Below are positions 46,099-47,893 of a stretch of DNA of 64,000 nt, one piece after another. Numbering within the stretch: position 1 is the stretch's first letter; each line of letters opens with the position of its first letter. The position numbers were made by a program, and so were the translations under genes. The stretch comes from Halopseudomonas sp. (lineage in GTDB: Bacteria > Pseudomonadota > Gammaproteobacteria > Pseudomonadales > Balneatricaceae), in assembly GCA_036960405.1 (NCBI GenBank), contig JBALWS010000005.1:10137-74136 (forward strand), read 5' to 3'. The notes beneath the pieces are model-generated. The model was not told the DNA's origin and ran no database searches. It saw only the letters and a list, made by a program, of their open reading frames with translations.

Positions 46099-46162
46099 GA
46101 GGATCGCCTCCCGCGGTAATCACCGCAACCGACCCTGAAGGCCACATAAGTAACTGCTGCAT
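46088..46162 (-). CDS. Candidate 24-aa upstream ORF overlapping the norC start
   Basis: GAAGGAG-7 nt-ATG; [24 protein letters not shown]; stop 11 nt inside norC in another frame. Confidence 0.4.
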
Positions 46163-46209
46163 AATTAGGCTCCTTCGCCTGAATAAATAATTGTTATCGA
46201 CTTAGGTAT

Positions 46210-46226
46210 TACAATGTTCGTGCCAA
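46210..46226 (-). promoter_or_regulatory. sigma54 promoter for norC operon
   Basis: TTGGCACGAACATTGTA vs consensus YTGGCACGRNNNTTGCW (one change at -12, C to T). Confidence 0.75.
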
Positions 46227-46230
46227 CAAT

Positions 46231-46243
46231 TAAAGCATTGTTT
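46231..46243 (-). promoter_or_regulatory. Candidate IHF site
   Basis: AAACAA-TGCT-TTA vs WATCAA-N4-TTR (1 mismatch), AT-rich, between enhancer and sigma54 promoter. Confidence 0.45.
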
Positions 46244-46263
46244 TAAATGGCTTTATTTATAAC

Positions 46264-46280
46264 GTTGTAATATTGACAAC
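46264..46280. promoter_or_regulatory. NorR binding site (GT-N7-AC); further degenerate copies at about 46290-46306
   Basis: GTT-GTAATATTGAC-AAC. Confidence 0.7.
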
Positions 46281-46318
46281 CGAGAGTATGATGTCATTAC
46301 GATAACACGGATATCAAA

Positions 46319-47893
46319 ATGACAACGCGCACCTTCTTCGATACGCTGACGTCTATCGTCACCGACCTGTCACGCGACCTGCCTGCCGAACAGCGTTACC
46401 GCAACTTGCTAGAAGCGCTGCTAAAACTGTATCCCTGCGATGCGGCGGCGCTGCTCAAACTCGAAGGCAAGCAGCTGCGACCGCTGGCATTCGAAGGCCT
46501 CAGCCTCGACACCCTCGGTCGCCGCTTCGAGGTAACGGAGCACCCGCGGCTGGCCAAGCTGCTGCACTCGCGTGAACCGATTCGATTCGAAGCCAGTTCG
46601 CCGCTACCCGACCCTTACGATGGCCTGGTCGCCAACCAAGACATGCAGCTGCACGTACACGACTGTATGGGCGCGTCGCTGTATATCGACGATCTGCCCT
46701 GGGGCGTACTGACACTGGATGCGATAGACCCCGGCACCTTCGACCCGATCGACCCGGTCGAGCTGCGCACCTTTATCAGCCTCACCGAAGCCACGGTCAA
46801 AGCGGCCGACCGGATGGATGCGTTGGCCGCCAAGGCCGAGCGGCAACAGTTGGTCGCGCGCACCCTGATGGATGAAAAAGATGCCGAGTCGGAGATGATC
46901 GGTACCAGCACGGTGATGGAAAAACTGAAGCAGGAGGTCTCGATCGTTGCTCAATCGCACCTGTCGGTGCTGGTCCAAGGCGAAACCGGGGTTGGTAAGG
47001 AACTGGTGGCCCGGCAGATTCACTACCAGTCACAACGCAGCCAAAATCCGTTAGTGCAGATCAACTGTGCCGCGTTACCGGAAAACCTGGCCGAGAGCGA
47101 ACTGTTCGGCCACGTTAAAGGGGCGTTTTCCGGCGCAGGAACCGATCGGGCCGGTAAGTTTGAGATCGCCGACGGCGGCACCCTGTTTCTGGATGAGATA
47201 GGCGAACTACCGCTCAGCATCCAAGCCAAGCTACTGCGCGCGCTGCAAAGCGGCGAGATTCAACGCGTGGGGCGTGACCAGCCGCTACAGGTAGATGTCC
47301 GCATCGTTGCCGCCACCAACCGCGACCTGCAACAGGAGGTCAACGCCGGACGCTTCCGCGCCGACCTGTACCACCGCCTGAGCGTCTACCCGCTGCTCGT
47401 TCCGCCACTGCGAGAGCGCCAGCAAGATGTGCTGCAACTGGCAGGCTACCTGCTCGAGGTAGACCAACGACGGCTCGGCGCGCAGGGCTTACGCTTGTCC
47501 GAAGATGCCAAGTTAATCCTGCTCAGTTATCCCTGGCCCGGCAACGTTCGCGAGCTCGGTCACCTGCTCAGCCGCGCTGCGCTGAAAGCGATCACCAGTC
47601 AAGGCCGCGACAGCCGCACCATCATCATCGCCGCCAGCCATCTGGGGTTGGACGCGAGTGATTGGAATGAGATAACGCTCGATAAGCCCAGTGGCGCGGC
47701 CGTGCTGGCGCCCGCTACCAGCATGGCTCAAGAAGTCAGCCTGAAACAGGCAACCGAACAGTTTCAGCGCCAATTGATCGAGGCAGTATTGACCCAACAC
47801 CAAGGCAATCAAGCGGCCGCAGCACGGCAACTAGGGATACACCGCAGCAATTTTTACCGGCTACTGCAGCGTTACCAGATCCAGCCAAAGTGA
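46319..47893 (+). CDS. norR: NO-responsive sigma54-dependent activator NorR
   Basis: GAF with [23 protein letters not shown] (Fe-site residues); AAA+ [23 protein letters not shown]; C-terminal HTH. Confidence 0.95.

Follow-up and report, generated by a model that had tools for sequence, protein, structure and literature searches.

The stretch of DNA analysed here, a 64-kb window from Halopseudomonas sp. (contig JBALWS010000005.1), carries the regulatory gene norR and, divergent from it, an operon encoding a cytochrome c-type nitric oxide (NO) reductase (cNOR). With a probability of about 0.8, a NorR/sigma-54 promoter located at 46225..46211, in the spacer between norR and norC, drives this nor operon from a transcription start near 46199. 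In the textbook scheme, nir, nor and nos genes are under the control of Crp/Fnr regulators (DNR, NNR, NnrR) and NorR is used for detoxification enzymes. Our reading is based on the identities of the proteins, on the presence, statistical strength, orientation, fixed geometry and conservation of the NorR sites and of the promoter, and on the lack of an FNR-type box, all of which were computed in this work. An earlier note on the same DNA had proposed that cNOR is wired to NorR and sigma-54, on the grounds of a divergent norR with an intact Fe site, a GT-N7-AC site, an integration host factor (IHF)-like site, a -24/-12 promoter with T at -12 and the absence of a TTGAT-N4-ATCAA box from the spacer. 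All these elements were recovered here, the enhancer was found to be complete, and the arrangement proved to be conserved in 31 related loci.

On sequence grounds, the reductase is a true cytochrome c-type enzyme, since its subunits match the chains of a known cNOR, its ligands align with those of that enzyme and the quinol-dependent reductases (qNor) are far weaker matches. The structural counterparts of NorB (44211..45641, minus strand) and NorC (45652..46098, minus strand, cytochrome c subunit with a Pfam Cytochrom_C domain) are the Pseudomonas aeruginosa cNOR chains 3O0R_B (5e-223) and 3O0R_C (1.3e-54), respectively. The FeB/haem histidines and the conserved glutamates of the catalytic subunit NorB align with those of 3O0R_B, including the SALEP motif. 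Comparison of NorB with qNor structures gave only 1e-17 to 1e-43. Moreover, the two subunits fit the cNOR pattern of a NorB of about 460 residues devoid of the qNor N-terminal extension and of a separate mono-haem NorC, and accessory norQ, norD and norE/F genes are found in the cluster.

The product of norR (46319..47893, plus strand) is predicted to be an NO-sensing sigma-54 enhancer-binding protein. It matches the NCBIfam equivalog NF003451 with 729.2 bits (cutoff 476) over residues 7-522, and its Pfam domains are GAF, Sigma54_activat (4.9e-71) and HTH_8 (3.4e-11), the AAA+ domain carrying a GAFSGA loop. The protein is 47% identical to E. coli NorR in a pairwise alignment. The Fe-site residues R75, D96, D99, C113 and D131 (E. 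coli numbering), reportedly the Fe ligands listed for E. coli NorR by Tucker and colleagues in 2008, are all identical in the window NorR (5/5). The sigma-54 contact loop (47099-47116, residues ~261-266) reads GAFSGA and not GAFTGA; GAFSGA is a natural variant of this loop that is compatible with activation (PMC4641369). The identity of 47%, the GAFSGA loop and a branch of 0.92 substitutions per site between its clade and the E. coli-type NorRs would also be expected if the regulator were a NorR paralogue with a ligand different from NO. However, the five Fe-site residues are conserved, the score lies above the NCBI equivalog cutoff and the partner genes always encode NO-producing or NO-consuming enzymes (cNOR, nirS), so that such a paralogue is the most improbable of the explanations considered here.

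The spacer between norR and norC is 220 bp long and is described below from the norR start toward norC. It contains three NorR sites, all given on the minus strand. Site 1 (GTTGTCATTTTGATATC, 46310..46326) overlaps the norR ATG and has AT in place of AC (22.8 bits). Site 2 (GTTATCGTAATGACATC, 46290..46306) has AT in place of GT (20.7 bits), a GTTAT variant that is also present in two related loci, L006 and L007. Site 3 (GTTGTCAATATTACAAC, 46264..46280) is a perfect GT-N7-AC inverted repeat (23.0 bits). The claim of a GT-N7-AC site therefore stands for the perfect repeat at 46280..46264, with the correction that it is not single but is accompanied by two others with one mismatch each. The sites start 101 nt (site 1), 81 nt (site 2) and 55-56 nt (site 3) upstream of a TGGCAC element. 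They were scored with a 17-bp matrix that was built solely from the sites of related loci, the window being left out. The three spacer sites are the top three matches of this matrix in the 64-kb window, the next best one reaching 13.5 bits. When the window was simulated 200 times with a first-order Markov model, the maxima averaged 12.5 bits and peaked at 19.9 bits, so that none of the simulations (0/200) reached 20 bits. The 13.5-bit match (GAGGTCATAACGACTAC, 53142-53158) is found between a CHAD gene and a histidine-phosphatase gene. This isolated match, which lacks a neighbouring sigma-54 promoter and does not stand out from the simulated maxima, is probably due to chance.

Next to the sites, on the norC side, lies the predicted -24/-12 promoter TGGCACGAACATTGT (46211..46225, minus strand), which reads TTGGCACGAACATTGTAAT in its wider context and points at norC. 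Its TGGCAC-N5-TTGT sequence is the sole zero-mismatch match to TGGCAC-N5-TTGY in the 64-kb window. The -24 half is perfect (TGGCACG, with GG at 46224-46223), whereas in the -12 half (TTGT) GT replaces the GC of the consensus at 46212-46211, leaving T where C is expected. From the position of the -12 element, the nor transcription start is predicted at 46199 (within 2 nt, minus strand), so that about 100 nt would separate it from norC as a leader. The A/T-rich stretch between the NorR sites and the promoter contains the IHF-like site AAACAATGCTTTA (46231..46243, minus strand), with one mismatch to the IHF consensus WATCAANNNNTTR. An equivalent A/T-rich AAT/ACA... block is found at the same place in the relatives and in E. 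coli norVp and pspAp. T at -12 need not disqualify the promoter, as E. coli pspAp also has T at this position (it reads TTGGCACGCAAATTGT); pspAp is functional with this base. On the opposite strand, a candidate sigma-70 promoter of norR (TTGTAA-16-TATGAT, 46265..46292, plus strand, 9/12 consensus matches) is overlapped by NorR sites 3 and 2. Because the three sites overlap the norR start codon and this candidate promoter, NorR probably represses its own gene, as would be expected by analogy with E. coli norR.

In order to evaluate the conservation of this arrangement, one genome per species was scanned, which yielded 80 NorR loci. The norR gene adjoins norCB in 22 of them. These linked loci come from Motiliproteus, Neptunomonas, Neptuniibacter, Marinobacterium, Thioalkalispiraceae, Thiohalobacter and Chromatiales genomes or metagenome-assembled genomes (MAGs), with NorR identities of 57-85% to the window NorR. 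In all 22, a TGGCAC-type element facing norC is preceded by three sites, whose starts lie 100-103, 80-83 and 55-57 nt before it. Nine further relatives, including Saccharobesus litoralis, Porticoccaceae and Tara Oceans scaffolds, were retrieved via the protein database, and the same site and promoter geometry was observed in each (9/9), bringing the total to 31 related loci. The sequence between the regulatory elements could not be aligned across the relatives.

A maximum-likelihood tree was built with the 72 fullest loci of the 80-locus scan, the window and E. coli NorR. All 20 norCB-linked NorRs included group in a single clade (support 100/100), which is sister to the E. coli/Shewanella-type NorRs and separated from them by the 0.92 branch mentioned above. 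On this phylogenetic evidence, the norR-cNOR module is a cassette of old origin that spans the clade, with occurrences in Oceanospirillaceae, Porticoccaceae, Alteromonadales, Thioalkalispiraceae and Chromatiales. The survey of norR-norCB linkage advised in the earlier note thus revealed the linkage in other species, and at the same time it does not sustain the view of a regulatory rewiring at this single locus. More distant NorRs (Myxococcota, NC10, Planctomycetota) adjoin genes for ytfE/ScdA-type hemerythrins and 766-aa qNor proteins, which are classical NorR targets. As to the loop, most members of the cNOR-linked clade have GAFSGA, a few having GAFTGA, GSFTGA or GSFSGA, and NorRs more distant from the clade have GAFTGA or GAYTGA. 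Over 32 loci, the -24 half is well conserved and the -12 base is T in 13, A in 12, C in 6 and G in 1, that is T or A in 25/32 and a base other than C in 26/32. The T at -12 is hence not peculiar to this locus, since it also occurs in pspAp and most loci of the clade lack C at this position. Co-variation between the loop and the -12 element was looked for and discarded, since GAFSGA and GAFTGA both occur with TTGT, TTGA and TTGC. Five NorRs inside the clade (L011, L012, L014, L016 and L020) have no adjacent NO-related gene; judging from their surroundings, their targets, if any, would lie elsewhere.

No TTGAT-N4-ATCAA box with two mismatches or fewer was detected in the spacer or the leader of the window, the best match in the spacer having three mismatches. 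Likewise, no Crp/Fnr-family protein, nirS, nirK or nosZ was found among the 40 window open reading frames (ORFs) scanned. Several observations nonetheless weigh against control of the operon by NorR and sigma-54. The contact loop of NorR is GAFSGA rather than GAFTGA, the GT/AC core is mismatched in two of the three NorR sites and the -12 element is devoid of the canonical C. No RNA run was found to hold the sequence of the locus: a 3.7-kb query matched no sequencing runs, and a 667-bp query gave weak matches to DNA metagenomes alone (share <=0.09). Finally, two relatives contain perfect FNR-type boxes upstream of norC. In L070, the box TTGATTTTGATCAA is situated in the norC leader and is followed, at class II spacing, by the hexamer TAATAT, and in L091 the box TTGATAACGATCAA overlaps NorR site 3. 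These two boxes indicate that a second input exists in some lineages, and an FNR/DNR-type input may have been added in those of L070 and L091.

FNR-type boxes were also encountered in the clade beside nir genes. In two Motiliproteus MAGs, norR and norC are separated by an inserted gene (L002:2573-3745; L004:2599-3801) for a TAT-signal two-domain multicopper oxidase, which is most likely nirK. This nirK-like gene has its own perfect TTGAT-N4-ATCAA box and is immediately followed by a terminator-like hairpin and a T run. The three-site/sigma-54 module is duplicated in these loci beside norC, which has no FNR-type box of its own. This duplication bears on another explanation, namely that the three sites serve only norR autoregulation and that TGGCAC-N5-TTGT is either non-functional, owing to its T at -12, or served by another activator. 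Such a proposal would account for the overlap of site 1 with the norR start codon and of sites 2 and 3 with the candidate norR promoter, as well as for the non-canonical -12 element. In L002 and L004, however, the insertion parts norR from norC and complete sites and promoter are found beside norC. Moreover, the distance between promoter and sites is fixed in the 31 related loci despite diverged flanks, and pspAp works with T at -12. We therefore consider a role restricted to norR autoregulation to be very unlikely.

In three metagenome contigs of Tara, JGI and Logan origin (L085, L087 and L090), norR faces a nirS-nirT-like-cupredoxin/cytochrome-nirF cluster and not norCB. Their NorRs (61-62% identical) belong to the same clade as the cNOR-linked ones; the true norR starts are probably some 57 nt downstream of the annotated ones. 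All three contigs present the 101/81/56 three-site/sigma-54 module followed, 79-91 nt further, by an FNR-like box (3/3). This succession of a NorR/sigma-54 module and an FNR-like box suggests, at the sequence level, that nirS has two promoters in these lineages. As the nirK-like and nirS loci carry boxes and the norC modules are mostly without them, FNR-type sites are in use in these lineages, mostly at nir genes, and a NorR/sigma-54 module alone is the norm at cNOR. This contrast between nir and nor supports the NorR wiring of cNOR and also shows that dual control is possible.

At the window locus, dual control would mean that the NorR/sigma-54 promoter is real and that a second, unrecognised promoter or regulator (a degenerate DNR, FNR, NnrR or NsrR site, or one of the weak sigma-70 matches) maintains a tie to low oxygen. 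Besides the boxes of L070, L091 and the three nirS-linked loci, two 9/12 sigma-70 matches oriented toward norC (46317..46288 and 46297..46269) are consistent with this idea, and so is the 2-5 fold higher expression of the Methylophaga nor1 cluster under anoxia (PMC11526790). Against it, the spacer and leader of the window lack a box at the two-mismatch threshold, the weak sigma-70 matches fall in an A/T-rich region and coincide in part with the NorR sites, and none of the scanned window ORFs (0/40) is of the Crp/Fnr family. Dual control at this locus is thus unlikely, albeit less so than the two explanations discussed above.

Control by NorR and sigma-54 would operate as follows. The divergently encoded NorR would bind the three GT-N7-AC-type inverted repeats ahead of the -24 element (starts at 101, 81 and 56 nt), and IHF, bound at the site between the repeats and the promoter, would bend the DNA. 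Binding of NO to the mononuclear non-haem iron of the GAF domain would free the AAA+ domain of NorR, which would in turn remodel the sigma-54 closed complex. The resulting transcript is predicted to comprise a small upstream ORF and then norC-B-D-Q-E-F. For NO sensing, sigma-54 dependence, use of IHF, autoregulation and induction independent of anoxia, this scheme is modelled on E. coli norVW and Ralstonia norAB.

The closest architecture is that of E. coli norR-norVW, in which norR is also divergent and the order of parts is the same, from three GT-N7-AC sites through an A/T-rich IHF region to a sigma-54 promoter; the Fe-site residues of the GAF domain are the same as well. In E. coli norVp, the sites are located at 114, 93 and 69 nt, followed by AAAAACAATCAGATAAAA and then by CTGGCACGCAATCTGCA, so that the array of the window (101/81/56) is 13 nt nearer the promoter. 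The two systems also differ in the -12 element (TTGT in the window, CTGC in norVp), in the loop (GAFSGA versus GAFTGA) and in the target, which is a membrane-bound respiratory cNOR in the window but a cytoplasmic flavodiiron NO reductase (flavorubredoxin) in E. coli. The pspA promoter of E. coli resembles that of the window in its T at -12 (TTGGCACGCAAATTGTATT versus TTGGCACGAACATTGTAAT in the window) and in the A/T-rich IHF region that directly precedes it; its activator, however, is PspF and not NorR, and its regulon is unrelated.

In the denitrifier Ralstonia eutropha, a membrane-bound NO reductase of the haem-copper type is activated by a NorR/sigma-54 system (PMC1274295). Its norAB genes encode a quinol-dependent qNor, whereas the window encodes a two-subunit, cytochrome c-dependent cNOR with norDQEF. 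Distant NorR homologues sampled from Myxococcota and NC10 likewise adjoin ytfE/norA-like genes and genes for 766-aa qNor proteins. According to Rodionov et al. 2005, the targets of NorR are norVW, hmp, norB (qNor), hcp, dnrN and nnrS, and nir, nor and nos genes are mainly under DNR/NnrR (PMC1274295). The norCB genes of Pseudomonas, Paracoccus and Rhodobacter, which are controlled by DNR, NNR or NnrR, share with the window the enzyme and the NO signal. Unlike these systems, the window has neither a TTGAT-N4-ATCAA box nor a sigma-70 class II layout, its gene order is norCBDQEF, and its predicted activator does not belong to the Crp/Fnr family but is a sigma-54 enhancer-binding protein of the AAA+ type, whose sensor is non-haem Fe.

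The nor1 cluster of Methylophaga nitratireducenticrescens JAM1 and GP59 also encodes a cNOR, with norD before norQ and an adjacent norR (norCBDQ-norR-norE). There, norR is placed after norCBDQ and is not divergent from norC. Expression of cnorB1 rises strongly upon NO production. In strain JAM1, cnorB1 was up 18.5-fold and norR 2.3-fold (PMC5710167, PMC5918138, PMC11526790), and oxic cultures reduced NO to N2O (PMC5710167, PMC5918138). The value for the second cluster, nor2, was 1.6-fold. The authors stated that cnorB can be regulated by NorR (PMC5710167, PMC5918138, PMC11526790). These papers contain no promoter, enhancer or mutant analysis of NorR at cNOR (PMC5710167, PMC5918138, PMC11526790), and the induction, together with the oxic reduction of NO, provides indirect experimental support for the NorR/sigma-54 model. 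No promoter or mutant study of NorR at a cNOR was found in our literature search, which yielded only these Methylophaga papers on annotation and expression and whose coverage did not extend to most subscription journals.

Altogether, the module adds a new class of targets to a regulatory design that is well known; annotations already hint at it, and it recurs widely among marine gammaproteobacteria. A broader proposal, to which we give even odds, is that the long-branch, mostly GAFSGA NorR subfamily of marine Gammaproteobacteria is a dedicated NO-responsive activator of respiratory denitrification genes. Its targets would usually be cNOR and, in some lineages, a nirS gene with an added FNR layer; it would act through a class of promoters poor in C at -12 and would need no oxygen signal. 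Among marine Oceanospirillaceae, Porticoccaceae, Alteromonadales and relatives of sulfur oxidisers, the cassette is frequent. If it works as predicted, NO reduction and N2O production would be switched on by NO without an anoxia signal, with a bearing on models of marine N2O sources, and NO-triggered cNOR expression could lead to N2O formation in seawater that is oxic or fluctuates. In addition, sigma-54 promoters with T or A at -12 occur naturally in the clade and could be used to probe that position.

The leader of the nor transcript contains a 24-codon upstream ORF (46088-46162, minus strand) with its own GAAGGAG ribosome-binding site. This ORF traverses the norC Shine-Dalgarno sequence and stops 8-11 nt inside norC, out of frame. 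Its start, frame and ribosome-binding site are kept in the Motiliproteus group, where it encodes 22-24 residues with whole-codon length differences, and relatives that are more distant and have short leaders do not possess it. Its product may act as a leader peptide, or the ORF may serve for translational coupling. A search of the 45800-46500 region against Rfam returned nothing at E <=1. The idea of a structured leader was dropped because the leader RNA folds no better than shuffled sequence (z = -0.92).

The nor operon has the order norC-B-D-Q-E-F on the minus strand. The mechanically called norB ORF begins at TTG 45689, overlapping norC, whereas the alignment with 3O0R_B begins at the internal ATG 45641, which on this comparison is the likelier start. 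A gene for a 608-aa protein (42238..44064) occupies the norD position, which is kept in relatives. This protein has no Pfam match at default thresholds, VWA and VWA_2 signals in its C-terminal part remaining below the cutoff (E ~1e-3), and the same applies to its counterparts in relatives; from its sequence, it looks like a divergent NorD. It is followed by norQ (41434..42213), encoding a MoxR-type AAA+ protein with Pfam AAA_5 and CbbQ_C domains, by norE (40811..41434), encoding a COX3-like protein (Pfam COX3), and by a norF-like gene (40486..40803, Pfam COX4_pro).

On the other side of norR, a CHASE4-PAS-GGDEF diguanylate cyclase gene (48068-49888, plus strand) is situated between norR and ppk1. 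In L003, L006 and L007, ppk1 directly follows norR, and in L002 one small ORF intervenes. The diguanylate cyclase gene appears to be an addition in this genome, since no homologue was found in any of the related loci fetched. The genes ppx and ppk1 flank the entire nor/norR block (40.1-49.9 kb), which also contains a small cupin gene on the minus strand, to which the nor operon possibly extends.

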